A stretch of 63,710 nucleotides of DNA, the filler included, from Chrysochromulina tobinii (Eukaryota), in assembly GCA_001275005.1 (NCBI GenBank). It is 4 parts of 4 records of this genome, joined end to end, with 100 filler letters (N's around TTAATTAATTAA, not from the genome) between each part and the next. Parts side by side here need not be neighbours in the genome. Positions count along the whole stretch, not along the records: positions 47,171 to 63,710 come from JWZX01001079.1; 3 more parts are not named here. The stretch is one strand, 5' to 3'. Within the stretch, counting starts at the first letter, position 1. Every line of letters starts with the position of its first letter. Positions 12,850 through 59,300 of this stretch are shown here, piece after piece. Under the pieces are notes generated by a model. It did not search any database and was not told the origin of the DNA. It was given only the letters and a program-made list of their open reading frames with translations. The position numbers and the translations under genes are program-made.

Positions 12850-13932
12850 GGGTTAGGGGGGGTTTCCTATACAAATTGGGGGGAGTTTCCTATACAATAC
12901 GTATCCTGATGTATCCTATATGTATCCTGCATGTATCCTGTATGTATCCTGCAGGATACATGTATCCCGAAAGTATCCTGATGTATCTCAAATGTATCTT
13001 AAATGTATCTTACATGTTCTGTTACAATCCAAGAGAATACATGTATCTTGACATTTTGCATGTATTTAACACGTATCCCAAACGAGTCCAAGATACATTT
13101 TGGGATACACATGAGATACGTTACGATACATGTATCTTGGGCGCTTCCTTGGTGTCACACTGGATACATGTCAAGATACATCAGGATACGTGTATCTTGG
13201 ACTCTTCATCACGATACATTAGGATACACCGAGATACAAAATCACGATACATGTAACTTGGACGCGTCATGACGAATATATGTATATATGTGGGATACAT
13301 GCAAGCATTTATGCGGGATACATGCGGGATACATGTATCTGCAGTGGTTCCAGGATACATAGAGGATACATGCGGGATACATCAGGGATACATCATGAGA
13401 GACATGTATCTCAAATGTATGCAAAGAGGTACGTATCTGAGGTGCAAGATACATGCGAGATACATGCATGTTGCATGATACATGTATCCTCATCAGTATC
13501 CTCAGAGGTGATCAAGATACATACAGGATACATCCGAGATACATAGTGAGATACATAGTGAGATACATGTATCTCAACTGCATCGAGGAGAGAGATGTAT
13601 CTGATATGAAGGGATACATGCGGGATACATGCGGGATACATGCGGGATACATGCGAGATACATGTATCCTCAGTGATAATCAAGATACATGCTGGACACA
13701 TGCGAGATACATGCGGGATACATGCGGGATACATGCACGAGGATACATATCTCGGGGGTTGGGGGATGTAACAGAGCATGTAAGATACATTTGAGATACA
13801 TCAGGATACATTCGGGATACATTCGGGATACATGTATCCTTCAGGATACATGCAGGATACATGCAGGATACATAAGGATACGTATTGTATAGGAAACCAC
13901 CCCCAATTTGTTTAGGAACCCCCCCCTGACCC
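12850..13932. mobile_element. Non-autonomous foldback/MITE-like element with ~175-bp imperfect terminal inverted repeats built from GATACAT/ATGTATC subrepeats
   Basis: Left GGGTTAGGGGGGTTTCCTATACAAATTGGGGGGAGTTTCCTATACAATACGTATCC..TCTGTTACA matches the reverse complement of the right end (..TGTAACAGA..GGATACGTATTGTATAGGAAACCACCCCCAATTTGTTTAGGAACCCCCCCCTGACCC); AT-rich against the host background; no transposase; no TSD found. Confidence 0.8.
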
Positions 13933-43273: not shown

Positions 43274-43373
43274 NNNNNNNNNNNNNNNNNNNNNNNNNNN
43301 NNNNNNNNNNNNNNNNNTTAATTAATTAANNNNNNNNNNNNNNNNNNNNNNNNNNNNNNNNNNNNNNNNNNNN
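43274..43373. other. Assembly spacer
   Basis: 100-nt N/TTAATTAATTAA/N block. Confidence 0.98.
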
Positions 43374-46300
43374 GTACTGCAGGGTGCCCGACGAGTCGGT
43401 CGCCACGGTGCCGCCGTACGAGTAGCCGGTGATGCCCTCGATCGTCGTGGTGGTCGCCACGTTGGTCGGCGCGTTGCCGAGCAGGATGAGCCCGCCCCAC
43501 TTGCCGCGCTCGCCGAGCGTGATGGCGTTCTCATTCGAGTCCGTGAAAACGGTGACCGAGCTCGATAGCGCCGACTCGGCAAGCACGGACGTGAACGTGA
43601 TCGGCAGCGAGAACGTGCCCGACGCGCTGATCGAGCCACCCTTCAAGACCACGAGCGCCGGAGCGGGATCCGTGTCCATGACGGGCAGCCCATACACGGA
43701 GGTGCCGGCGGCGATGGTGAGCGTGACGCCCGATTGCACGAAGAGCTGCGAGGCGAGCAGATAAGACGTTGTGTTCGTCCAGGATGCGCTTGCGCTGAGG
43801 GCGCCGCCCACCGCGGCCGCCGTGTCGAGGAGGGTAGCAAAGGGAGCGGCTGGGATGCCAGTGCACGTGGATCCAACCATCTTGCCACTGCACGCCAGCC
43901 ACGAGTAGCCGGCGAGCCAGTTGTCCGTCGAGCTGCCGAACGCGCCCTTGCAGGACACCGACGAGAAGAAGGTGTCGCCGTTGGGGGGTGCGTCCTTGCC
44001 GCTCTGGCAGGCCGCACCAGTCTCCATCGGGAGCGGATTGAATGTGCTGCTCAGCCCCGTGTAATCCAGCATGGACGCTGGCACGTTCGTTAGGCCAGGG
44101 TCAATATTGAGTGCCGAGAAGACCCCAGCGGCGCAATTGGTGCCGAGCGAAATGGGGGTCGCGGCGCCATTGATGATGTTGTTCGGCGAGAAGTACAGGT
44201 ACGTGTTGATCGAAACCGACGCGGCGGGCAGCGAAGACGTGCGCGTCTCGGTGCCGCAGTCATTGTTAAGCAAGCCGACGTCCCGGGCGTTCGTGAGCAC
44301 GATGTTGCCAAACTTGCCGCCCGTGCCCTCGCGCAGGCGCATCAGGCCGCCGGTGCGGCCCGAGGCGCCGCCACCGATGATGGTCATCGAGTAGAAGGCC
44401 GGGTGCGAGCGCGGCAGCGAGTTCAGGTTGCTGTTGGTCATCGAGTCCATCTCTGTGCCGTGGTTGCCACCGAAGCCAGTCATCGCAAAGAGGTACTGGC
44501 CGCGGCCCTGGTACCCCTCATCCGTGTCGAAGGCGTCGTCGATCACGAAGAGCGCCGACAGGTACTTGACGTCGACTGTGCCGCCGAAGAACTCGAAGCC
44601 GTCGTCCGCGTTGAACGCCACCTCGCAGTGGTCGACGACGGTGCCGGAGCCGACGCCGCCGAAGGTGATGCCGTTGATCTCGTTGTTCGCGCCCACGATC
44701 GCGCCGCCGTGCCACACGCGCACGTACTGCATGACGCCCGAGCCGTCGGTCGGCACGGAGCCGCCGTACGTGTAGCCGGTGATGCCCTCGATCTGCGTGG
44801 TGGTCGGCATGTTGGTCGGCGCGTTGCCGAGCAGGATGAGGCCGCCCCACTTGCCGCGCTCGCCGAGCGTGATGGCGTTCTCATTCGAGTCCGTGGAGGC
44901 GGTGGCCGAGCTCACGAGCGCCGACTCTGCAAGCACGGACGTGAACGTGATCGGCATCGTCGCGCTGCCCGTCGCCACGAGCGAGCCGCCCTTCACGACC
45001 ACGATCGCCGGAGCGGGGTCCGTGTCCATGACGGGCAGCCCATACACGGAGGTGCCGGCGGCGATGGTGAGCGTGACGCCCGATTGCACGAAGAGCTGTG
45101 AGGCGAGTAGATAAGACGTTGTGTTCGTCCAGGATGCGCTTGCGCTCAGGGCGCCGCCCACCGCGACCGCCGTGTCGAGGAGGGTAGCAAAGGGAGTGGT
45201 TGGGATGCCAGTGCACGTGGATCCAACCATCTTGCCGCTGCACGCGAGCCACGAGTAGCCGGCGAGCCAGTTGTCCGTCGAGGTGCCGAACGCGCCCTTG
45301 CAGCTCACCGTTGAGAAGAAGGGGTCGCCGTTGGGGGGTGCGTCCTTGCCGCTCTGGCAGGCCGCACCAGTCGCCGTCGGGAGCGGATTGAACGTGCTGC
45401 TCAGCCCCGTGTAATCCAGCATGGACGCTGGCACGTTCGTTAGGCCAGGGTCCACTGTGATTGCCGAGAAGGCCCCGGCGATGCAACCGGTGCCGAACGA
45501 AATGGGGGTCGCGGCGCCATTGATGATGTTGTTCGGCGAGAAGTACAGGTACGTGTCGATCGAAACCGACGCGGCGGGCAGCACAGACGTGCGCGTCTCG
45601 GCGCCGCAGTCATTGTTAAGCAAGCCGATGTCCCGGGCGTTCGTGAGCACGATGTTGCCAAACTTGCCGCCCGTGCCCTCGCGCAGGCGCATCAGGCCGC
45701 CAGTGCGGCCCGAGGCGCCGCCACCGATGATGGTCATCGAGTAGAAGGCCGGGTGCGAGCGCGGCTGCGAGTTCAGGTTGCCGTTGGTCATCGAGTCCAT
45801 CTCTGTGCCGTGGTTGCCACCGAAGCCAGTCATCGCAAAGAGGTACTGGCCGCGGCCCCGGTACCCCTCATCCGTGTCGAAGGCGTCGTCGCCCACGAAG
45901 AGCACCGACAGGTACTTGACGTCGACTGTGCCGCCGAAGAACTCGAAGCCGTCGTCCGCGTTGAAGGCCACCTCGCAGTGGTCGACGACGGTGCCGGAGC
46001 CGACGCCGCCGAACGTGATGCCGTTGATCTCGTTGTTCGCGCTCACGCGCGCGCCGCCGTGCCACACGCGCACGTACCGCATGACGCCCGAGCCGTCGGT
46101 CGGCACGATACCGCCGTACGTGTAGCCGGTGATACCCTCGATCTCCAATGGTGACGACGCCGACGTGGGCGCAAGGCCGAGCACGATGATGCCACCCCAC
46201 TTGCCGCGATTCTCGAGAACGGTGGCGGCGAATTGCGAGTCAGACGAGACCGTTTCGCTCGACGCCCTCTCCGGGTTGAGAGCCGTGAAGGTGATGGGCG

Positions 46301-47070
46301 AAGCCGCAGTGCCATCCGCGATGACCTTGCCGCCCTTCAAGACGACGAGAGCGGGCGCAGCGCCACCGATGGCCTTGGGCGTCGAGTAGATCGTCGTACC
46401 AGCGCCGATCGCAACCGTCTTTCCGCTTGGCACAAACACCTGGCACGTCATCACGTAGATGCGGCCTGGCATCCACGTCACGTCAGTCGTGAGATTGTGG
46501 CTCGGAACACCGGCCGGGCACAGGCTCACAGGCTCCGAGGCCTCAGCAGCAGTGGGGCACGTGTACGAGCTCGACACGAAGCCGCCGTGCGTGTTCACGA
46601 ACGACCAGCCGTTGAGCCAGTTCACGCTGCCAAAGGCGCCCTTGAAGTTGACAGCATCGAAGAAAGGGTCAGCAACCGTGGATGCGGCCACGTCCTCCAC
46701 GTCTTGGAACGCCGCGCCGCCGCACACAGGGCGCGGGTCGAGCGGCAGCGTCGCGGACAGTCCACCGCTCAGTTCGAATCGGCTCCAAAGATTGTGCGCC
46801 GACATGAGCAGCGGGTCCGTCTGCACGGCGGTGAAGCTCAGCAGATCAGTCGAGCACTTGCCGCTCTCGGTGCTGAAGACCGAGCCCGTCCCCGAGGGCA
46901 CACCCGAGATGATGTTCTTGGAGCTGAAGTACAGGTAGTTGAGGACGCTGGGCGTGACGAATGACAGCTGCTGGGTGATCAGGTAGTTGCTGCTCCACGA
47001 GGTGGATGAGCACTGGAGGATCTCGACGCCGATGTTGGTCGGGTTGTCCAGGAGCACATTGATGAACTTG
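43374..47070 (-). CDS. Large extracellular-type beta-helix repeat protein with ~450-aa tandem modules; truncated at both ends
   Basis: Open across the whole contig; module GKWGGLILLGNAP..EG..YGG..DGSGVMxYVRVWHGG..NEINGITFGGVGSGT..DDGFEFFGGTV repeats with a 1350-bp period. Confidence 0.85.
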
Positions 47071-47170
47071 NNNNNNNNNNNNNNNNNNNNNNNNNNNNNN
47101 NNNNNNNNNNNNNNTTAATTAATTAANNNNNNNNNNNNNNNNNNNNNNNNNNNNNNNNNNNNNNNNNNNN
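47071..47170. other. Assembly spacer
   Basis: 100-nt N/TTAATTAATTAA/N block. Confidence 0.98.
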
Positions 47171-48183
47171 CCCCCCCGCCGGCAGCCGCACCGGAGAGCG
47201 CCGCGTCGGGCAGCGCCGTGTCGGGCGCGGAGACCGGCGGGCTCGACGCCGCGCTGCGCGCCAATGTCGAGTCACAGCTCGAGCGGCTTCTGGCGCAGCT
47301 CGAAGATCTGGAAGAGCTCAAGGAGGACCTGTCGGAGGAGGAGTACGTCGAACGGCCTCAAATGGCCTCGGAGTGCCTCTTGATTGCCTCTTGATTGCCT
47401 CTGATTGCGTCTGATTGCGTCTGATGGCCTCGGAGTGCCTCTTGATTGCCACTGAGGACCTCTGAGAACACTTTCGAGTGCCTCCCTCATCATCTCTGAG
47501 TGCCTCCCTCATCATCTCTGAGTGCCTCCCTCATCATCTCTGAGTGCCTCCCTCATCATCTCTGATTGCCTCCCTCATCATCTCTGATTGCCTCCCTCAT
47601 CAGGTACAAGGCGACCAAGGAGGACACACTGGCGCAACTCAAGGAGTTCCAAACGTCCCTCGCCAAGATGGCCTCGGGCTCGATGACGCTGCAGTCGAAC
47701 CTCGAAAAGACGCGGCTCGCCGTCTCGGCGGCCGTCTCCGGCGCCTTCCAGACACCCGAGGTCAGCCGGCCCTTCGCCTCCACGCAGCCCGCCGCATGCA
47801 AGTGCTCACCACGGCGCCCTCCCCTCCCGTTTCCCCACAGGTCATCCGGCTCTTCGCCTCCAAGCAGCCCGCCGCGATGCGCCGCCGGCTCGCCGAGATG
47901 GAGCGAGATGTCAAGCTCGGCAAGCTCGCGGCCGCGGCCTTCGACGGCATGAAGTCCGAGATGCTGGTCGCACTCAAGAAGCTCGGGGAGCCGCTCAGCG
48001 CGAGCGAGGAGGCCTTCCTGGGCGCAAACAAGTCCGCGTCCCTCTCGGAGTTTGAGGCGGTCGATGATAATGCGGACCAGGTGAGCCAGCTGCCGGTGAA
48101 CCTCTGATTGCGTCTGATTGCGTCTGATTGCGTCTGATGGCCTCCCTCATCAGGTGAGCCAGCTGCCGGTGAACCTCTCGTGA
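47171..48183 (+). CDS. LZIC: LZIC (leucine zipper and ICAT-homologous) protein, 5' truncated; introns 47343-47603, 47761-47840, 48081-48153
   Basis: Spliced: NVESQLERLLAQLEDLEELKEDLSEEE|YKATKEDTLAQLKEF..AFQTPE|VIRLFASKQP..LKKLGEPLSASEEAFL. Confidence 0.9.
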
Positions 48184-48690
48184 ACGAATCGCCGGTGTGA
48201 ACGAAGTGTGAACCTCTCGTGAACGAAGCGCCGGGAGCACACACCGTGTGCGCATCGTTGACGCGTCGTCGCAGGCGCCGATGACGCGCGTCGTCGTGGG
48301 CAACGAAGCGCCGAAGACGCGTCGTCGTGGGCGCCGTGGGCGCCGAAGACGCGTCGTATTGGGCACAGTGGGCGCCGAAGACGCGTCGACGCGTCTCTGG
48401 GACTGCGGTGATGATGTGGAGATCGAGATCGAGATGGGAGTGCGAGCGAGGGGCAGCCTGGCAACTCTACACAGCGGGGCATCACGCGTTTATTCAGGAC
48501 GGCGAAAAACACAAAACTCGGCTCCAGCGTGTGTGAATCGGTAGGGTCGGAGACTAATTGGGGGGAAGAGTTCAGAAACACATTCACATTCACACATGCT
48601 CGAGTCGGCACCGCGCCTGCACACCGCGCCGCCGAGCCCCACTCACAGGAGGCCACAGTGCACATCATATCAGGGTGCGCAGCGCACGCG

Positions 48691-50388
48691 ATGACGACTT
48701 CCGCGTCACAGTGGATATACCCAAGTTTGGCGCTCAACTGCATCTTCTTCGTGCACCTCGTTGTGCGCGGCAATCTTGTCCCATGTAGTGCTGTGCCATG
48801 TTTCGTGGCGACGCCGTCTGCAAGTTCAGAGACCCCGTCTGCGAGGTCAGCGACCCCGTCTGCAAGCTCAGAGGCCGAATCCATGCCTCCAAGGGACCCA
48901 CAGAGTTTGCCAATCTGGGCCAGGTTCGCACGGTATCCAGGGCCCGATTGGAACAAGCTCTTGGCCGACGAGAAGGTGGAGCGAAAACCCCATCGAACTT
49001 CTCCGCCGACGCCGCCGTATCCGCCGCCAGGGCCCACTCAGACGGTTGGTTCGCCAACTTGCACGCATTTGCTGGAGTGCAGCCTCTCCAAGGGTATGCG
49101 GTCCAAGGTGTACCAAGCGTTCCAGAATGGATACACGCACCGGATCCCAGACGAACTTGGATACGAGAATGGCATCCGAGACCTCGCCGACGGCGGCAGC
49201 GAGCTCCTCGTCCCGATTCGAAAGCAAATCATGCCGCCCGCTGCCAACATCCAGCTTGACTGGAAGCCTGCGCCGTGGCCCACACGCATCGATCTCAACC
49301 ACCTCAACTGGGCAGCCCTTCCAAATGGGGAGAGGTTCCGCGAGTGTGGGAAATCGCATGCACTCACTAATGAAGTGCACTTATACTGCAAGTGCGTGCT
49401 CCGCTTGCGTCGACCGTTTGCTCCTGGAGCCCCCACCACCTCGAAGCGGGCGCCTCAGGAGCCGTCCTTTGTTTGCCCGCAGGTTTTTCACAAAGCAGGC
49501 CCTCTTGTGGAATAAGGACTATTGGCCGGGTGCGGAGCCCTACGACGACATCCCCGACCACGTGTTCGATCGGCCAGACGTGCGGCTGGTGCTTGATCTA
49601 GGTGCCGGCAACGGCAACCTCGCCGTCAACTTGTTCCGGCGATATGGCGATCGCGTCATCACGGTGTCCGCCACGCTCATCGTCGCCGCCGAGGCAGGCA
49701 CGCTCACGCCGCCCTTCCTGCAACGGATGACATGCAACTGATTACATGCTGATGACATGCAACTGATGACATGCAACTGATGACATGCTGATTACAGGCA
49801 CGCTCACGCCGCCCTTCATGCAACTGATCGCGGCGCGTGGCTTCCCCACTGTGGCGGTCGACATCTACTCATTCTTCCCCTTTGGTGAATCAACGTTTGA
49901 CGTGGTCCACACGAGCTGGGTCTATCACAGCGGCTTCACGCGCCACGCCATCATGGAGATGTGAGCACTCGCCACGTGATTCCACCCGGGCCTCACAAAC
50001 GCTGTCACGTGATTCGAACCTGGCCTCACAAACACGCTGTGTGCCTGGCTGAGCGGCGGTACCCGATCGGTTCCGTTGGGCAGGTACTGATTACAAATGA
50101 TTACATGCTGATTACATGCTGATTACATGCTGATTACCGTTGGGCAGGTACCGCGTGCTGCGCCCCGGCGGGTACTTGATCCATACGGTGTGGGATAAGA
50201 TGGCCTCCCTCCGGGGCACGCTGCTCCTCGAGTCGCTCGCCGCGAAGATGAATTGGAAGCTTCTCGCTCATTACGAGACCATGAAGGGGCATAATGTCAC
50301 CAAGGCGAGGCTCCGGGGGGACAAGGTGCCCTACGACTGCTACAAGACCGTCTACCAGATGCCGAGCTACAAGTACTCGAAGAGGTAG
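48691..50388 (+). CDS. Type II membrane class I SAM-dependent methyltransferase; introns 49392-49482, 49698-49797 (GC-AG), 49961-50147
   Basis: N-terminal hydrophobic anchor; VLDLGAGNG, PFMQLIAARG, FPFGESTFDVVH, EM|YRVLRPGGYL assembled across introns. Confidence 0.82.
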
Positions 50389-50732
50389 GAAGTCCTGCAG
50401 GTACGTGTGACTCAATACAGGCAAGGTGTGTAGATTCCAACGGGGGCTTTGAGCCACGACACCGGGTCACTGCAATGCCGATGTTCCACAGGCGACAACG
50501 AGCTATTACGTACAGTACATTTCTGTGTTTCTGTGATTTCGAATCGTCTTGATCTGTTTGTCAGTTGGCTGTTGCGCGGTTGTACGATCGGTAATAGTAC
50601 CTACACCCGAGATAGGCCGATGTCCGAACGAAATAGCGTCGTGCCGAGCGTTTTTCGCGTTCAACGCCCTCTCTCGCGACCTCCTTGGCGGGGAAGGCGA
50701 GCTGCTACAGGCTACTAGCCTCGCCGGAATCG

Positions 50733-53700
50733 ATGGCGCGCAAGACGCACAAAAAGTCGCTGCAAGAGTACATGGAAGAGAATGGGATTGGCGTCGGGGA
50801 TCCGGACGACGATGAGGAAAGCGTGGTGGCGCCCATTGTGCAGGAGACGCCGCGGCTCGTCACACGTGCCCTTCGGACGGAGCACCTGCAGCCGCTCATC
50901 GACCTCGTCTTCTCGGACAGCACCGAGGTGCAACGCAACGCGACGCGCTTGCTCGGCACGCTGGCCCTCAACGCCGATAACATCGACATCCTGATCGACT
51001 CTGGCTCGTTGGGGCCGCTGCTGACGATGGCAGGGTCGACCGACTCGTCGGTGCGGCGCGCGGCGCTTGCAGGCCTCGCGCACATGAGCTCACGCGACGA
51101 CATTCGGACGAAGCTTTGCGCGGTGGCCGGCGGGCTCCAGACGGTGGTCGCCGGCGTCACATGCAGCGACGGGCCGTCGAGGTTGGCCGCGGCCGAGTGC
51201 ATGGCCAACATCGCCACCTCCCTGAAGCTGCGTGGGAGGCTGATTGACAGCAAGGTGGGCGGGCTGCCCGCGCTGCTCTCGCTGCTCACGTCGCGCACGT
51301 CCGAGCTCAAGCGCTGGGGCATGCTCACGCTGCAGCGCCTCGCCGTCTGCCGGAAGACCAATGGTGCCATCATCACCACCAAAGACGACCCCGAAGGCGA
51401 CGGTTACGCGGACGAGCTACTTAAGGCAGGCGTGCTGCAGCCGCTGCTCACGATGCTCCGGGCGGGCACGATGAGTCTCGAGGAGGACCTGCGCACGCAG
51501 GCCATGTGCACCGTCTACTCTCTGGCCGACGCGAATGAGGAGATCAAGAAGAAGCTCGGCGAGCACCCGGTGAGGGCCGAGATTTCCCTGAATGACGAAC
51601 CCCTGATGAAACTGTGACGGAACTGTGACGAGCCCGATAGCTCGGCGAGCGCACCCGGTGTGAATGCCTCGACGAGAGCACACGGGCGAGTGTGCCATGG
51701 AGCGCCTTTGAGTGATGAGTGACGTTGATGATGAGTGGCGCTGATGAGTGTCTCTTGATCGCCTCTTGATCTTCCCTTGAGAGCCCCTGATGGCCCCTGA
51801 TGGCCCCTTGAGGGCCCCCTGAGAGCCTCCGATGGCCCCTTGAGGGCCATGGCCCCAGAATTGCAGTGGTCATCAGAATTGCAGGTGCTCGTGAAGGCCA
51901 TTGTGGGCTTGCTGACGACCACTGATTGCCTCTGATGACCACTGATTGCCTCCCTCATCAGGTGCTCATGAAGGCCATAGTGGGCTTGCTCACGCTGGAC
52001 GACCACGCGGGCACCGGCGCGACGCAGCGCGAGGCCTGCCGCACCGTCCAGCTGCTCGCGACGCGCGCCGACAATGTGTATCGCCTCCTCGGCGCTGGCT
52101 TGATCGTTTCACTCTCGATGCTCGCCCGCACCGAGAATCTCATCAAGAAGCAGTTTGCGAGCACGATGCTGCTACGGGTCGCTACGGAAGCGGGCTGCCG
52201 GCGCTCGCTGCTCGATGCCGGTGGCGCGCGCACGCTGTGCTTCCTCTGATTGCCTCTGATTGCCTCTGATTGCCTCTGATTGCCTCTGATTGCCTCCCTC
52301 ATCAGGTGGCGCGCGCACGCTGTGCTTCCTATGCCGCCCGTCGCTTCCTCGCAAGGTCGTCCGTCCCGCGGCGAACGCGATCTCACTGATGTGCAGCTCG
52401 GCCGAGTGCGTGCCGTCGCTGCTCGACACGGGCGCCGGCTCGGTGCTTGCGACGCTCGCGAGCTCGTCCGACCCGGAGATGCTCCTCGGCGGCTGCCAGG
52501 CGCTCGCCAACATGCTCGCGTGCATGGCGGAGGAGGCGGGGACGGTGGCCAAGGCGGTGAACCGCGCGGGCAGCCCGGTTGTGAACCGCGCGGGCAGCCC
52601 GGTTGTGTCGCGCCCCACCTCGCCAATCTCCCAAACCTCGGCCGAAGAAGACGAGGAGCGCCGTCCCGGGCGGGGCGCCACCGAACCGGAGGGGGCGCCG
52701 TCCCGGGCGCCCCCTCCCAAACCGGAGGGGGCGCCCACGAGCGCCGTCTCGAGCGCCGACCCGCTCGGCCGGGTGCGCGAGGCCGTCCGAGTGACCGACC
52801 AGCTGCATGCTGATGGCCTCCCTCATTGCATGCTGATGGCCTCCCTCATCAGGTGCGCGAGGCTGTCCGAGTGACCGACCAGCTGCTTCAGCAAGGCGCC
52901 CTCTCCGTCTTCCTGTCGGCCGCGACCTCCTCCGATCGCCAGCTGCAGCTGCATGCCTCCCGCGGCCTCAAATTCATCGCGATGCGCTCGCCACTCTTTG
53001 CGCGCGTCCTCGCCCGCAAGGGCGCCGCGCGCGCCCTCGCTGCGCTGCTGGGTGCCGCGCGTGAGGAAACGCTCCGGAACGCAGTAACGGCCCTCCACCT
53101 GATCACCACGGCGCTCTGTGAGGGCGTTGGGCGCGAGCCTCTCACGGCCAAGCGTCTCTCGACGGTGCGCGGAGGGCAGCTCTGATGGCATGCTGATTGC
53201 ATGCGGATTACATGCTGATGGCATGGTGATTACATGGTGATTACATGCGGATTACATCTCTGATCGCGTGCTGCTTGCCCATCTGCTCGCGTGCTGCTCG
53301 CCTCCCTCATTGCATGCTGCTCGCCTCCCTGATCAGGTGCGCGGGGTGCTCGAGCTCGGTGTGGTGGGCACACCCAAGGAGCTCTGGGCGCGCCTGAATG
53401 AGGACGGTGGGCTGCCCGCGGCGACGCTCCTTCGGCTCGCATGCCACTTTGAGGGGCTGCACGCCGAGGCGGGGGAGCGCTCGCGAGCGATACTCGAATT
53501 GCTCAAGCCGGGCTTGCTGCAGTCCCTCGACATCGACGACCCAAGACGCGCCAGCCAGTCGGCGAAGGCGATCGCTGAGCGCCGAGGGAGGAATAAATCC
53601 ATCGCCAAGGTCCAGAACCTGTTCCGCCTTTCTCGCAGCCTGAAGCCGGCCGCGGCCGACCCGTTCACCGCGTTCAGCCGACCGACTACCTCGGCGAACG

Positions 53701-54435
53701 CCACGGGCGCCGCCTCGGGCGCGGCCTCGAACTTTGCGTCGCTCGTGCGCGCGGCCAAGCTGGGCAACGGGCTCGTGGCGAACGACTCGCCGCGCTGGGC
53801 CAAGGCGTGGGGAGGCGCCTTTGGGGCCAAGGCGGGCTCGGCCGCGGCTGCCTCGGTACTGAACGCGCAAGCGACAGGCGCGGACGCGATCTCGAAGCTA
53901 ACCCTAACCCTAACCCTAACCCCAACCCTGACCCTAACCCTGACCCTGACCCTAACCAGGCGCGGACGCGCTGTCGAAGCTCAAGGAGGCCGCGGCCCAC
54001 GCACGGAAGGCGTCCCAAGAGGCCGGTCCCAAGTTCAAGTCGCTCGCGGCCGCTGCAGGCGCCCACGATGGCGCGGGGAAGCGGACGCTCTTCGCGATCC
54101 TGCACCAGCCTCGCCCGCCCGCGACGGCGCGTCCCGAGGCGAGCGGCGCACGCGCGCGAGCGGTCAGCCTCCTGGGAGCAGAGACCGCCTCGTCCTCAGC
54201 CGAGCCAGCCCAATCCGAAGCGCCAGGTGCGCCAGGAGCGCCGGCGGTCACCAAAGAGAGGCACACCGGTAGGCCTCCTGCTTTGGGATTGTGGCTCGGC
54301 GGCGCCGTCGGCACGAGCAGCGCTGCTGGAGCAGCTGCTGGGGCGATGGTGGTGGCGGCGCCCGAGAAGGAGAAGCGGATCTCGGCAGTGCGGCGCGCTC
54401 AGATGACTCTCGAGGCCCAGGATCTGACGCTTTAA
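50733..54435 (+). CDS. Armadillo-repeat protein; introns 51570-51961, 52221-52305, 52773-52852, 53165-53336, 53878-53959 (GC-AG)
   Basis: ARM repeats (LQPLIDLVFSDSTEVQRNATRLLGTLA, GGLPALLSLLTS); the five introns give a continuous frame to TAA at 54433-54435. Confidence 0.82.
53900..53959 (+). repeat. Interstitial telomere-type (CCCTAA/CCCTGA)n array forming the body of an intron
   Basis: AACCCTAACCCTAACCCTAACCCCAACCCTGACCCTAACCCTGACCCTGACCCTAACCAG. Confidence 0.92.
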
Positions 54436-54660
54436 GCGGGCGGGATTTCTTTTTTAGCTTGTCGACTAGTCAGAACTCGGACACTTGTACGGTAGGTGTG
54501 CGGTGTCCACAAAGATGTGTAAAAGATGTGCGGTGTTCACAAAATCCATCCCCCACCCCCTTCCCCCCTACGCATGCAAGAGTTTCCCACAGCCTGTGTT
54601 CACGCCGTGACTCGCGCGAAGGCGTGATTAGGCGCTCGCGGCCGAAAACAAGCGGGGGAA

Positions 54661-55881
54661 ATGCCCCGACCACCGCCACCGCCGGCTATGGACGTCGAGG
54701 ACATCCTCGTGCGCATGCGGCAGATGCTCAAGAAGCGTGGTGCGGTGGGCATCAGGGGACTGACGAGAAACTTTCAGATCTGCGACACCGACAAATCGGA
54801 GAAGCTCAACCTCGCCGAGTTGACTAAATGCGTCAACTTGTGCAAGCTCGACCTCTCGCAAGAGGAGGTCCGCGCACTGCACCGCCATTTCGATTCGTCC
54901 GGCGACGGACTGGTGAGCTTCGACGAGTTCGTCAAGACAGTGCGCGGTCGGATGAGCGAGCCACGCAAGAAGCTCGTGATCAAGTGCTTTGAGGCTCTCG
55001 ACCAGGCAGGCGACGGCAACGGCCAGCTGTCGGTGGCCGACTTGAAGCCGTACTTCAACGTCGAGCACGATCCTCGCTTCCTCACGGGCGAGAAGACGGC
55101 ACACGAGCTCCTCCAGGAGTTTGTCGACGGGTTCGAGCGAGGCCAGGGAGGCGGAGACGGCGTCATCGGCATCGACGAGTGGATCGGCTATTATGAGGAG
55201 CTGTCAGCGGGGATCGACGACGACGACTACTTCGGTGTGATGCTAGTGAACGCGTGGAGTGCACTGAAGAAAAAAGGGCCGAATGGCGAGGAGGTGCCAG
55301 CCATCCAGTATGTGTGCGAGGGCGACATCGACGTGCTCGAGCAGATCCTTCGGAAGAACATCTTCCAAAAGTCGGTCGGTACGAATGAGGTGCGTGCGCT
55401 GAAGGAGACGTTCAAGCGCTTTGACCAGGACAATAGCGGCGAGGTCAACTTTCGCGAGTTTTGTCGAGCGATGGAGTGCTTCGGGCTCTCCGTGTCGCAG
55501 CCTGGTCAAAAGGGCTCTGGAGGCGTGCCGCCCGATGTGCTGCGCGGCCTCTTCAACCGTTACAACACTGACGGGTCCGAGTGCATCAGCTACCTCGAGT
55601 TTACGAGCGGGCTGTTCCAGCGTGAGGCGGAGGCGCGGAGCAGCGACCCCGCGTTCACCACTGGCAACGGCGCCAATCTCACGCTGCCAAACCTCGTGCG
55701 CGACTATGATGCCGTGGCCGCCTCGGCAGCAGGGCTCGCACCACCGCCGCGCTGTATGCCTGACACGCGGAAATCACCCCTCCTCCGACCCGACGGTAAA
55801 GGGGGGAGCCTTGGCAATTACCCAGTGCGGCCCGATCGCGTCGTACGTCCCGAAGAGCGGGCGAAGGGCTTCTTCCGGTAA
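54661..55881 (+). CDS. Calcyphosin-like multi-EF-hand protein
   Basis: RGAVGIRGL..F...D, FDSSGDGLVSFDEF..VRGRMSEPRK, LDQAGDG, DGVIGIDEWIGYYEELSAGIDDDDYF, plus an extra EF pair FDQDNSGEVNFREF. Confidence 0.9.
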   Translation: MPRPPPPPAMDVEDILVRMRQMLKKRGAVGIRGLTRNFQICDTDKSEKLNLAELTKCVNLCKLDLSQEEVRALHRHFDSSGDGLVSFDEFVKTVRGRMSEPRKKLVIKCFEALDQAGDGNGQLSVADLKPYFNVEHDPRFLTGEKTAHELLQEFVDGFERGQGGGDGVIGIDEWIGYYEELSAGIDDDDYFGVMLVNAWSALKKKGPNGEEVPAIQYVCEGDIDVLEQILRKNIFQKSVGTNEVRALKETFKRFDQDNSGEVNFREFCRAMECFGLSVSQPGQKGSGGVPPDVLRGLFNRYNTDGSECISYLEFTSGLFQREAEARSSDPAFTTGNGANLTLPNLVRDYDAVAASAAGLAPPPRCMPDTRKSPLLRPDGKGGSLGNYPVRPDRVVRPEERAKGFFR

Positions 55882-56335
55882 CGGAGAGGAGCGGAGTCAG
55901 TCGGTAACCCTAACCGGAAGCGCATACCGCGATGTTCGTCGAGCTGGTTGCCTTATATAAGCTCTGAGTCTCTGTACACTCTCGGAGCTGCGCCTCGGAT
56001 CGTAAGAAGTAGCGGGGACTAGTGGTTGAGCTTATAGTTTCAAAATCCGGACTTATAACGTAAAACGTAAAAGTCAAAACGGCATATCTCGGGATACCGG
56101 TTACCGCTTCGTTCGATCGCAATTGTGAATTGACTAGCGTATACGACCGTATTACGTTAATAGCGGGTCCGAGTGTAGACGCTGCCTGTCGTCTCCCTGC
56201 AGGAGGCGTGAGTAGGAGATGCACACATCGGGTGATGACGTGAGGCGCGGTCGAGAGACGTGCCGCAGCTGCACACCTGTGCGTCTAGAATGATCTTGAA
56301 TGATCGTGCGCGTCGTCTGGCGGCCGCGGCGTGGG

Positions 56336-59300
56336 TCATTGCCGCAGCGTGACATAGGGCGGCTCATCGTTGGCGCAGCGGCAGAAGCCGCATGGCACGA
56401 TCGCCATCAGATCGGCTGGAGGGCGGAGAGTGCCCTCCTTCCCGCGGCACTGGTAGCACGCAGAGGGCAGGTTGCAGTTGTTTGCACGGCCCGTGTCGCT
56501 TCCTAATTTGGCACGGCCCGTGTCGAGCGCGGCCGACTGGTTGTTCCAGAGCTGCTTGAACTCGTGCGGCAGGTGGTCGATGGTCTTGGCGCACCTGATG
56601 AGGGGGTGGGGTGTCGGAGGCCATCAGACGCAATCAGCGGCCATTAGCGGCCATCAGCGGCCATCAGCGGCCATCAGCGCACTGGTAAGAGTAGACGTTC
56701 CACTCGGCCTGCTGGCTGAACCAGCACTGTGCATACTCGGGGTGTCGCGCCATGATGTCTCGTCGGTTGCGCGCAAATTGGGCACAGTTCCATGCAGTGT
56801 AGAGGCCAGTGAAGATCGGGTCGTGGCGCGCGCGCTGGTTGCCCGGGTGCTTGACCACAGAGTCGCCCGTGACGAAGTGGAACGTGAGCCGCGGCGAGAG
56901 CAACGCCATCCGACAGCCCGCGTGCGCATGCAACGCCTGCATCAGGTCCGTTGCGATCATTGAGACGCCCACCTGATGAGGGAGGCAATCAGTATGCCAT
57001 CAGAGAGGCAATCAGCATGCCATCAGAGACGCCCACCTGATGAGGGCTCGCCATCATTCGCCATCATTCGCCATCATTCGCCATCAATCGTCATCATTCG
57101 CCATCATTCGCCATCAATCGTCATCATTCGCCATCATTAGTCATCAATCGTCATCACCATTGTGAAACCGAGTGAGAGCTGCGGCACCCAGCGGCGCGGG
57201 AAGGTCCAACAGTCGTGACCTGGATGGGCGAGGCCCGTCCCACGCCATCCGAGAGCTTGCTCCACGCCGAAGGTGACGGGAGCGTGCTCGTACTCCTCTC
57301 TGATGAAGCTGATTGGAATGTCGGGCATCAGCTGTGCCAACGGGTAGAACGGGTAGGGGGAGGGGCGAGAGGGAGGGCAGGGGAAGGGGGTGACGAGGAG
57401 GGAGGTAACCTCAGGAGCACACCCAAAGCACATCGGGAGCTCATCGGGAGCTCATCGGGAGCTCATCGGGAGCTCATCGGGAGCTCATCGGGAGCTCATC
57501 GGGAGCTCATCGGGAGCTCACCTGCAGCTGACGCGCGAGCTTGAGGTAGAACGGCGCCTGCACGCCAATGTCGATGTTTGAGTACGTCAGGTGCTCTCCC
57601 TCGCCCTTGAGGTAGCCGGCGTACCTGATGAGGGAGGCAATCGGATGCAATCTCCTGAGGGGCGGCGTAACTGATGAGGGAGGCTTTTTGATGCGAGCGG
57701 CCATCCGAGGCCATCGGTGGCAATCAGCAGGCAAACCACGTACAGGATCATGTTGAGGAAGGGGAGCTTGGCGTGATGACGGAAGCTCGGGAGCAGCGTC
57801 GCGACCGACACGTTGAGCAGCGCGACGGCGAAGCCCTGCTGTGCGCACTGCGGCAGCCGGGCAGCGTCTTCGGGGAACATGGCGCAGACCACATCGACGC
57901 GCACGCCCTGGGTGTTTGCGAGGGCGACGGCGTGCGAGATGGAGGCGATGGTGATCTCTTGCGCGCGCGCATGCTCGGCGTCGTGCTCGGAGTAGAACGG
58001 GTTGATCACGTGCGTGATCGAGATGTTCTGCGCGCGCCGCGGCGGCGCCGCACGCGCCGCCCACTCGGAGAACCAATGCTCAGCACGGCGCGGCGGCTCG
58101 GGCTGCAGCACGCGCACGACTGGCTGGCGGACGAATTCTTGGGTCCACGCGCCGCAGCAGCGTGGCGGCTCGGCGCTCGACTTTGCCTCGCGGAGTCGTG
58201 TCTCGATGAAGGTCTTGCGCACCTGGACAGAAGGAGGCGCGCCATCAGCGGCAATCAAGGGAGATCGCACCTGGACAGAGGGGGCGCGCCATCAGCGGCA
58301 ATCAAGGGAGATTGCACCTCGTCCGACCAGGCGGAGGTCGTGCCACCGTCCATCGGCGCTGTCGCATTGCTCTTCTTCTTGGGCTTCGCCTTGAGGGAGA
58401 GGGTGAAGGCGCGCTGTACCGAGCTGATGGGTACCTCAAGGAACTCGGCCAACGGCGCCGGGTACCTGAAGCAAGGGGGGCGCCGTGGTGGGCATGGGTG
58501 CCGTTAAGGCGCCGTGGTGGGCATATGCATGCCGTGGCGGGTACTTGAAGCAAGGGGGGCGCAATCAGCGGCCATCCGCGGCAATCGGCTGTCGTCAGTG
58601 GAACTCAGAGGCACTTAGAGACACACAGAGGCACTCAGTGGCACACAGAGGCCGTCAGAGGCCATCAGAGGCACTCAGTGGCACCCAGAGGCGCTCAGGT
58701 GCACTTCGGCGCACCGCTCAGGGCGCAAAAGCATGTCCGTGTAGTTGACGACGCGGTACTCCTCCGCGCGGAGCATCTGCAGCTGTGAATACATCTGGTC
58801 GAGCTGTGACAAGAAGAGGCTCACCTGTGGTTGGCGTAGTGCGTGGCGCCGTGGTGAGCACATGCATGCCGACGCGTGCACGCGCGCCGTGGTGAGCATG
58901 CGCATGCCGACGCGTGCGCTCGCTGTGACATGAGGCGAGGCGAGGCGAGGCGGCTCTCACCTGCTGGATATCATCAGAGGTCATCAGGGAGGTCATCAGA
59001 TGTCATCAGCGAGGCGAGGCGGCTCTCACCTGCTGGATATCATCAGAGGTCATCAGGGAGGTCATCAGATGTCATCAGCGAGGCGAGGCGGCTCTCACCT
59101 GCTTGTGCAGCTTGAAGGTGCGGCCAGCCCGCCGCCAGATCTTTGGGAGCCCGCGGTTGTTCATCGACATGATCGCGTCGATCGGGTCGCGGTACAGCAC
59201 GATCACCTTGAGCCGCACGCCGAGCAGGTCGCACATGTACACGATGTCCGCCAGGTCGGGGTAGTGGGTTCCGTCCTCGGTCTCGTTCGACGAGCGAGAA

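Follow-up and report, generated by a model that had tools for sequence, protein, structure and literature searches.

The window analysed here is a stretch of 63,710 nucleotides, filler included, from Chrysochromulina tobinii (assembly GCA_001275005.1), and the GC content of 63.4% given for C. tobin in the accessible part of its genome paper is consistent with it (PMC4580454). A gene for an armadillo-repeat (Vac8-like) protein lies on the plus strand at 50733..54435 and gives a product with a Pfam Arm match, encoded by a 2,892-nt CDS that reads as a single open frame of 963 amino acids after removal of five introns. Its first exon falls in a 90% cluster that contains the C. tobinii protein KOO34821.1, which places the host in that species or very near to it. 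The public model of KOO34821.1 skips ~53807-54330, and ~144 residues are missing from it relative to the RNA-supported frame. Upstream, a long open reading frame on the minus strand (43329-47114) has an internal repeat of ~480 residues and adjoins an assembly gap (47072-47170) that consists of a short TTAATTAATTAA filler flanked by runs of N.

The focal intron of this study lies on the plus strand at 53878..53959, within the stretch missing from KOO34821.1, between an exon at 53337..53877 that ends in ACAG and the last exon at 53960..54435, which closes with the stop codon at 54433-54435. The first-pass annotation had proposed an 82-nt GC-AG unit here, and its coordinates, sequence, length and ends all hold, with a GC donor, a CAG acceptor and phase 1. 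As had also been read from the DNA, translation through the unit gives a TLTLTL run, and its removal restores a frame with ATGADALSKLKEAAAHARK that stays open to the stop. The duplication seen around the filler can be refined to 25 nt including the CAG, so that the intron carries at its far end a direct repeat of the adjacent exon, identical at 23 of 25 positions. The left copy (53875..53899, plus strand) gives the GC donor and differs from the exon copy by two substitutions, and the right copy (53957..53981, plus strand) contains the CAG of the acceptor as well as the first bases of the last exon. Such a pair would arise by chance with a probability of ~1e-10, or ~0.003 window-wide over 500 spacings. 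There are 15 equivalent ways of cutting the unit out, and canonical ends result from 53878/53959 alone. Terminal inverted repeats are absent.

The space between the two copies is filled by a telomere-type array (53898..53957, plus strand), for which a count of about ten hexamers had been suggested; there are exactly ten, namely six CTAACC, three CTGACC and one CCAACC, nine of which fit CTRACC, and the antisense strand reads as a telomere tract in GGTTAG register. The array shares CT with the left copy and C with the right copy. The earlier claim that every unit holds a perfect branch point is right for the six with CTAAC and wrong for the three with CTGAC and the one with CCAAC; by sequence, nine candidate CTRAC branch sites are spread from -59 to -5. 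The AACCAG ending is present, its AACC being part of the tenth hexamer. On the antisense strand the order is CCTG, GTTAG, nine more units to a final GGTTAG, and then the left copy. The bases at the break site that are in register with the array number one (G) at the primer end, where a lone base matches by chance in 25% of cases, and two (CT/AG) at the far end.

Six RNA runs contain the stretch, of which four were compared over 47200-56000 and three over 53560-53906. In contig X15 (record 5), the RNA follows 53560-53899 with two mismatches and then continues from 53982 on, and contig X17 (record 7) likewise has two mismatches and stops 4 nt further on, whereas a third contig (X18) ends at 53876, short of the splice joint. 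We infer that the two mismatched letters are those of the downstream copy. The depth bins of X15 record 5 around the repeat (53891-53963) are arithmetically consistent with an 82-nt skip. A DNA run (X13) has no mismatch to the window and is possibly its own source. Contigs from two runs (X15 and X17) thus skip 53878-53959, as an RNA-seq check of the proposed functional intron should show; the evidence comes from assembled contigs, from which retained forms may have been filtered out. The segment is a real, spliced spliceosomal intron of the U2 type (GC-AG) whose removal restores the frame. Elsewhere, over 48683-49700, RNA contigs differ from the window by ~5%, also at the joint 49693/49799, so an allele, a paralogue or a second strain would appear to be expressed there in those runs.

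The architecture of the focal intron is repeated at other introns of the window. Those at 47761, 48081, 49698, 51885 (nested), 52221, 52773, 53165 and 56973 begin with a copy of the first 8-35 nt of the next exon; a tandem filler comes next, and the intron closes with a fixed end, in most cases CCCTCATCAG. Exon-start copies were found at 9 of the 27 candidate acceptor motifs examined, the focal one included, and the end motif occurs in the window 15 times as CCCTCATCAG and once as CCCTAACCAG. Duplication plus filler is an anatomy common to several fillers, CCCTAA arrays being one. In an upstream gene, the intron at 48081..48153 (plus strand) has a perfect 25-nt duplication and a CTGATTGCGT filler and is spliced according to RNA joints, and two introns resemble it (47761-47840 and 49698-49797, plus strand); two related proteins (P0174 and P0175) read through 47761-47840. 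Within the host gene, the plus-strand intron at 53165..53336 (172 nt, RNA joint) combines a CTGAT-type filler with a duplication of only 8 nt, and its position is probably common to the sister lineage described below. The intron at 51570..51961 (392 nt, plus strand, RNA joint) contains in its last 77 nt, from 51885, a nested 33-nt duplication with filler at an older acceptor.

Two further introns of the host gene vary among relatives. The one at 52773..52852 (plus strand) has a 34-nt duplication and a CTGATGGCCTCCCTCAT filler and is absent from two predicted proteins (P0147 and P0149), which yet continue into the next intron, so that empty alleles probably exist as DNA. At 52221..52305 (plus strand), where the window has a 25-nt duplication and a CTGATTGCCT filler, the alleles (P0152-P0166) carry duplications of ~25 to 44 nt, judged from translations, and the filler unit varies, which suggests an ongoing process of parallel gain or rewriting.

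Several other structures in the window deserve mention. Nested duplication-plus-filler units at existing acceptors (51885-51961, ~50075-50150, 56973-57036 and 57625-57671) leave an internal CAG/GT or a repeated acceptor within a longer intron. On the minus strand, a whole 69-nt intron-like unit is perfectly duplicated in tandem at 58961-59098, and a marine locus (L076) has a telomere-type intron with a comparable whole-unit repeat. An AT-rich segment at 12850-13932 has terminal inverted arms of ~180 nt, 91-96% complementary, with GATACAT 11-mers in both orientations; it was considered as a two-part intron and rejected, the inverted 11-mer arrays resembling a foldback element, and is possibly a non-autonomous DNA transposon.

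Comparison with related proteins suggests a recent origin of the focal intron. In the cluster of near-identical sequences the insert is present in all 10 members, in four or more versions distinguished by the duplicated part and by the variant units. In a sister cluster (89% identical), among the best 15 of 33 members, 10 span the site and none carries the insert, while the other five do not include it; the sister proteins read ATGADAL[S/A]KLKEAAAH without interruption. The empty alleles were seen as predicted proteins, and they probably represent DNA, because most of the sister open reading frames begin at the exon that follows intron 53165-53336, and the contig of one of them, at 6,421 nt, exceeds the 2,892-nt CDS in length. 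Scans for related loci with P0008 as the query found no relative. The lineages differ at ~10% of residues (142-144 of 160 identical) and the focal copy has diverged from the exon at 2 of 25 positions, so the duplication probably postdates the lineage split. With the insert in 10/10 near-identical alleles and in 0/10 sister frames, the intron is probably young and recently gained, although a precise loss through the flanking direct repeats in the sister lineage is possible.

Telomere-type arrays were also retrieved from marine metagenomes with a pattern of three C-strand units followed by CAG, which gave at least 111 loci (178 kb); removal of edge and duplicate matches reduced 142 arrays to 116. 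Scans of viral contigs with the pattern gave no match, and the 14 matches in genome contigs, mostly chance bacterial repeats, were excluded. Three contigs placed in prokaryotic MAGs (L119, L120 and L122) carry CCCTAA-plus-CAG arrays and are probably eukaryotic contamination or chimeric ends. The ESM Atlas yielded no taxon of use. The sole taxon link for the marine loci comes from a gene at locus L057, to which a cluster with a Phaeocystis antarctica member is 55% identical; by sequence similarity this ties them loosely to haptophytes. At the same locus (L057:1410-2234, minus strand), in-frame exons of an N-myristoyltransferase (Pfam NMT_C) are parted by predicted telomere-repeat introns, one of which would use GTTAGG as donor and CCCTAG as acceptor; since its tract starts at GTTAGG, a G tract can supply the donor.

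The flanking duplications expected around such arrays are frequent in these loci. Among the matches listed, 53 of the 116 arrays are preceded by a copy of the exon start that follows them (score of at least 8), compared with 1.3 in a swapped-partner control, and a clear duplication is absent from the other 63. Again among the matches listed, the duplications measure 8-29 nt, apart from two of at least 60 nt that are whole-intron repeats, and their copies have a pooled identity of 803/846. The units span 70-176 nt in the same set of matches, with differing variant repeats and a site-specific 5' part.

A bias of the arrays to one strand of genes had also been predicted. Pfam searches of 250 open-reading-frame pieces from the first 73 loci gave matches in 18 loci, 13 on the pattern strand and five on the opposite strand, the latter possibly from neighbouring genes. 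These matches being too sparse, 16 of the frames were used to train a codon model, which in leave-one-out trials was right in 55 cases, wrong in none and ambiguous in two of 57. Among the matches listed, the model assigned a strand to 156 of 350 tracts, of which 107 have the C strand on the sense strand, 35 are G-then-C and 14 have G on the sense strand (194 uncalled); some of the 14 look like miscalls. The predicted preference for the C strand is borne out in listed tracts that lack the search pattern, with 55 C, 16 G-then-C and 12 G (C versus G, p=1e-7). The two-part tracts are TTAGGG-then-CCCTAA in 51 of 51 cases among the matches listed, where 17 have no CTG before the tract at either end, so that their order was not demanded by the search; the one C-then-G junction found among these matches lies inside a composite tract. 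Selection for spliceable inserts and the search pattern can both contribute to the strand bias and to the G-then-C order.

The register of the arrays is not random either. Among the matches listed, 37 C-only tracts have a duplication and 33 of them could be phased; 16 of the 33 start with CTAACC, which corresponds to a G strand ending in GGTTAG, where 17-22% would be expected under three null models (p 3e-5 to 8e-4). Three adjacent phases hold 27 of these 33 listed tracts (null 35-46%), and in 26 of the 33 no extra base separates the duplication from the array. At the unselected end of two-part tracts, CTG-GTTAG occurs in 8 of 33 among the matches listed, against a background of 6% (p=6e-4, weaker if double-ended tracts are sampled twice), and CTG-GTTAG-type starts stand at both ends in 8 of 33 listed two-part tracts. 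As for the predicted AACCAG ending, it is the commonest one without being universal: 16 of 71 sense tracts for which the search did not require it have an AG 1 nt past the last CTRAY, among the matches listed. The raw count of CCAG at such non-required tract ends, with antisense and internal ends mixed in, is 18/110 among these matches.

The Emiliania genome paper reportedly describes repeat-rich introns. TTAGGG telomerase activity was found in a haptophyte, according to the part of the report available (PMC3622300), and the TTAGGG motif assumed by the first-pass annotation is given, in the source portions at hand, for Pavlova, Calcidiscus and Phaeocystis, which are relatives of C. tobinii. 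The accessible part of the Calcidiscus leptoporus study describes pervasive internal TTAGGG tracts and ascribes them to possible rearrangements (PMC13518057); the likeness lies in a haptophyte genome that is rich in introns and often has telomere repeats at internal sites, which that part does not link to introns or duplications. The passages available from PMC12480563, PMC2784329, PMC4580454 and PMC13685798 contain nothing on telomere-repeat introns, and 'telomer' does not occur in those of the C. tobin genome paper (PMC4580454). We found no report of telomere-repeat introns in the open-access literature, supplements aside, those of PMC13518057 and of the introner papers being ones that may bear on the matter.

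Two known processes offer parallels, as far as the available parts of the reports go. In primates and rodents, short interstitial telomeric sequences were inserted at repaired double-strand breaks (PMC2246262, PMC7215372), with in-register bases, duplications and template-flanking bases at the breaks, the duplications being found at 6/130 rodent and 4/25 primate loci (PMC2246262). The focal intron resembles them in its short internal TTAGGG array, the empty orthologous site, the in-register junction bases and the duplication that some of them have; unlike them, it interrupts coding sequence and is removed by splicing, and in its class duplications are common (53/116 among the matches listed), the C strand is favoured on the sense strand and head-to-head pairs are frequent. 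In Daphnia pulex, introns were gained through the repair of staggered double-strand breaks (PMC4202315), and the likeness extends to the direct repeat of the adjacent exon, to the presence of the intron in some relatives and its absence from others, and to recurrent events within young introns. The Daphnia repeats are 4-12 bp long with a filler mostly of unknown source, against 8-29 bp and telomere repeats here, and the word telomere is absent from the main text of that paper as far as it was available (PMC4202315). By analogy, the focal intron may work like a mammalian-type telomere insertion combined with a Daphnia-type intron gain.

From the observed splicing, duplication, array and register, we infer that the focal intron was made recently by a staggered break with 3' overhangs, to which telomere repeats were added, probably by telomerase, before the ends were rejoined; we would put the probability of this reading at about one half. 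Strand geometry suggests that a duplication with both ends kept as 3' overhangs is the product of staggered nicks, and ends with 3' overhangs are substrates of telomerase. Two nicks ~25 bp apart would leave the same stretch as a 3' overhang on both ends, after which the antisense end (CCTG-3', its last G in register) would gain about ten GGTTAG units. The final AG of this extension could then pair with the CT closing the sense overhang, and fill-in would yield copy, array and copy. Such an insert would be tolerated because the GC of the left copy can act as donor, CTRAC branch sites are available on the C strand and the CAG comes with the right copy, so that the original mRNA would be restored exactly. 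Extension of one end would give the focal type and extension of both ends the TTAGGG-then-CCCTAA introns of marine relatives, and selection would retain the inserts that splice cleanly.

The C-strand bias, the CTAACC register and the 51/51 polarity among the marine matches listed, together with the empty sister alleles, argue for break healing by telomere-repeat addition. Against it, most duplication-bearing introns of the window have a non-telomeric CTGAT-type filler in the same geometry, and visual inspection places the start of these fillers, too, close to the CT of a CTRAY motif, which could make the register a generic outcome instead of a mark of telomerase. A CCAG ending could come from a donor that is another intron or, by analogy, from the template flank of a telomerase RNA; the CTG-GTTAG ends speak modestly for a built-in CAG whichever of the two models is right, and a search for a haptophyte telomerase RNA found none. 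The two origins first offered, telomerase and a propagating filler family, are not exclusive: the arrays are one of several fillers and have telomerase-like polarity and register, with telomerase itself a putative agent.

A tentative alternative keeps the staggered break and the duplication and has the filler copied from an existing telomere-type intron end, telomeric DNA or RNA, either by a repair polymerase or by the reverse transcriptase of a retroelement; in that case CTAACC arrays would form one of several filler families that propagate themselves, and two-part arrays would reflect priming at both ends. The CTGAT-type fillers, which share the anatomy and have a 3' end that is fixed within the family, fit this account, as do filler families specific to lineages, CCCTCATCAG occurring 15 times in the window and not at all in the marine loci among the matches listed. 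The variable length of the duplication (8 to 29 nt among those matches) agrees with it as well; in target-primed insertions, duplication length varies. Among the matches listed, 26 of 42 duplications starting with GY have no AG before the copy, so the A of the acceptor is not derived from the target and would have to be supplied by a donor or an untemplated step, which simple telomerase addition leaves unexplained. A long array as template nevertheless predicts a random phase at the truncated end, in conflict with the CTAACC start in 16/33 listed tracts, and among the same matches the array mostly lies within a few bases of the duplication (26/33 with no extra base) and foreign exon sequence is absent. 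The CTG-GTTAG ends (8/33 among the matches listed) also speak somewhat against copying, though compatible with both models.

It is rather improbable that an older intron was rewritten through replacement of its 5' part by a new duplication of the exon start and growth of the branch-site motif CCCTAAC by slippage, with the telomere match a convergence and the intron lost from the sister lineage. Nested duplications at existing acceptors (51885 within the spliced 51570-51961), the different duplication lengths and fillers at one site (52221) and the 8 matches in 10 positions between CCCTAACCAG and CCCTCATCAG, the usual intron end, would suit such rewriting. It requires, however, that the sister lineage underwent an additional precise loss, and it does not explain the sense-strand TTAGGG in 51 two-part arrays among the matches listed, and two alleles that are 95% identical in protein (P0001 and P0025) have arrays of equal length, which counts against rapid slippage. 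Reverse transcription of a lariat tail stalled at the branch A was rejected as well, since the start would then be expected beyond the branch A and not at CTAAC.

Introners are known from Chrysochromulina sp., with a 4-bp target-site duplication and no inverted repeats in the material available (bioRxiv 2022.06.06.494994), and the accessible parts of studies of Chrysochromulina sp., Symbiodinium and Polarella give class-specific duplications of 3-8 nt (bioRxiv 2022.06.06.494994, 2020.10.14.339549). In spite of this precedent for target-site duplications in the genus, the insertion of a classical introner, that is, a non-autonomous DNA transposon, is very unlikely, since duplication length here varies (8-29 nt across loci among the matches listed and 8-35 nt in the window), element length (70-176 nt) and internal sequence vary among those matches and the body is a tandem repeat, with neither a fixed short duplication nor end-to-end similar copies of near-constant length.

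A bolder version of the telomerase reading, which we regard as speculative and somewhat doubtful, would make the enzyme a routine maker of haptophyte introns that extends one or both 3' overhangs within genes. Bases just 3' of the template in its RNA would furnish the closing CAG, and the repeat would serve as branch site, acceptor and, in two-part introns, GT donor. Many or most introns of some marine lineages would then be healed breaks, and the introns built of CTGAT 10-11-mers would either be descendants or have been made by a related repeat-adding reverse transcriptase.

The source of new spliceosomal intron sequence is a long-open question, and the filler at repaired breaks is usually of unknown origin. 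Here the filler is identifiable, the footprint can be read to the single base, filled and apparently empty alleles exist in relatives of a cultured alga, and dozens of marine loci repeat the pattern, which makes the telomerase route directly testable. The contribution of the focal locus, which comes from a relative of a cultured species, lies in its RNA contigs, in the sister allele that seems to be empty and in the statistics on register. If true, the patching of staggered breaks by telomerase would be a little-recognised route to new introns, and the same process may account for interstitial telomere repeats being so pervasive across haptophyte assemblies, as well as for failures of gene models there, such as that of KOO34821.1, which skips the region of the focal intron.
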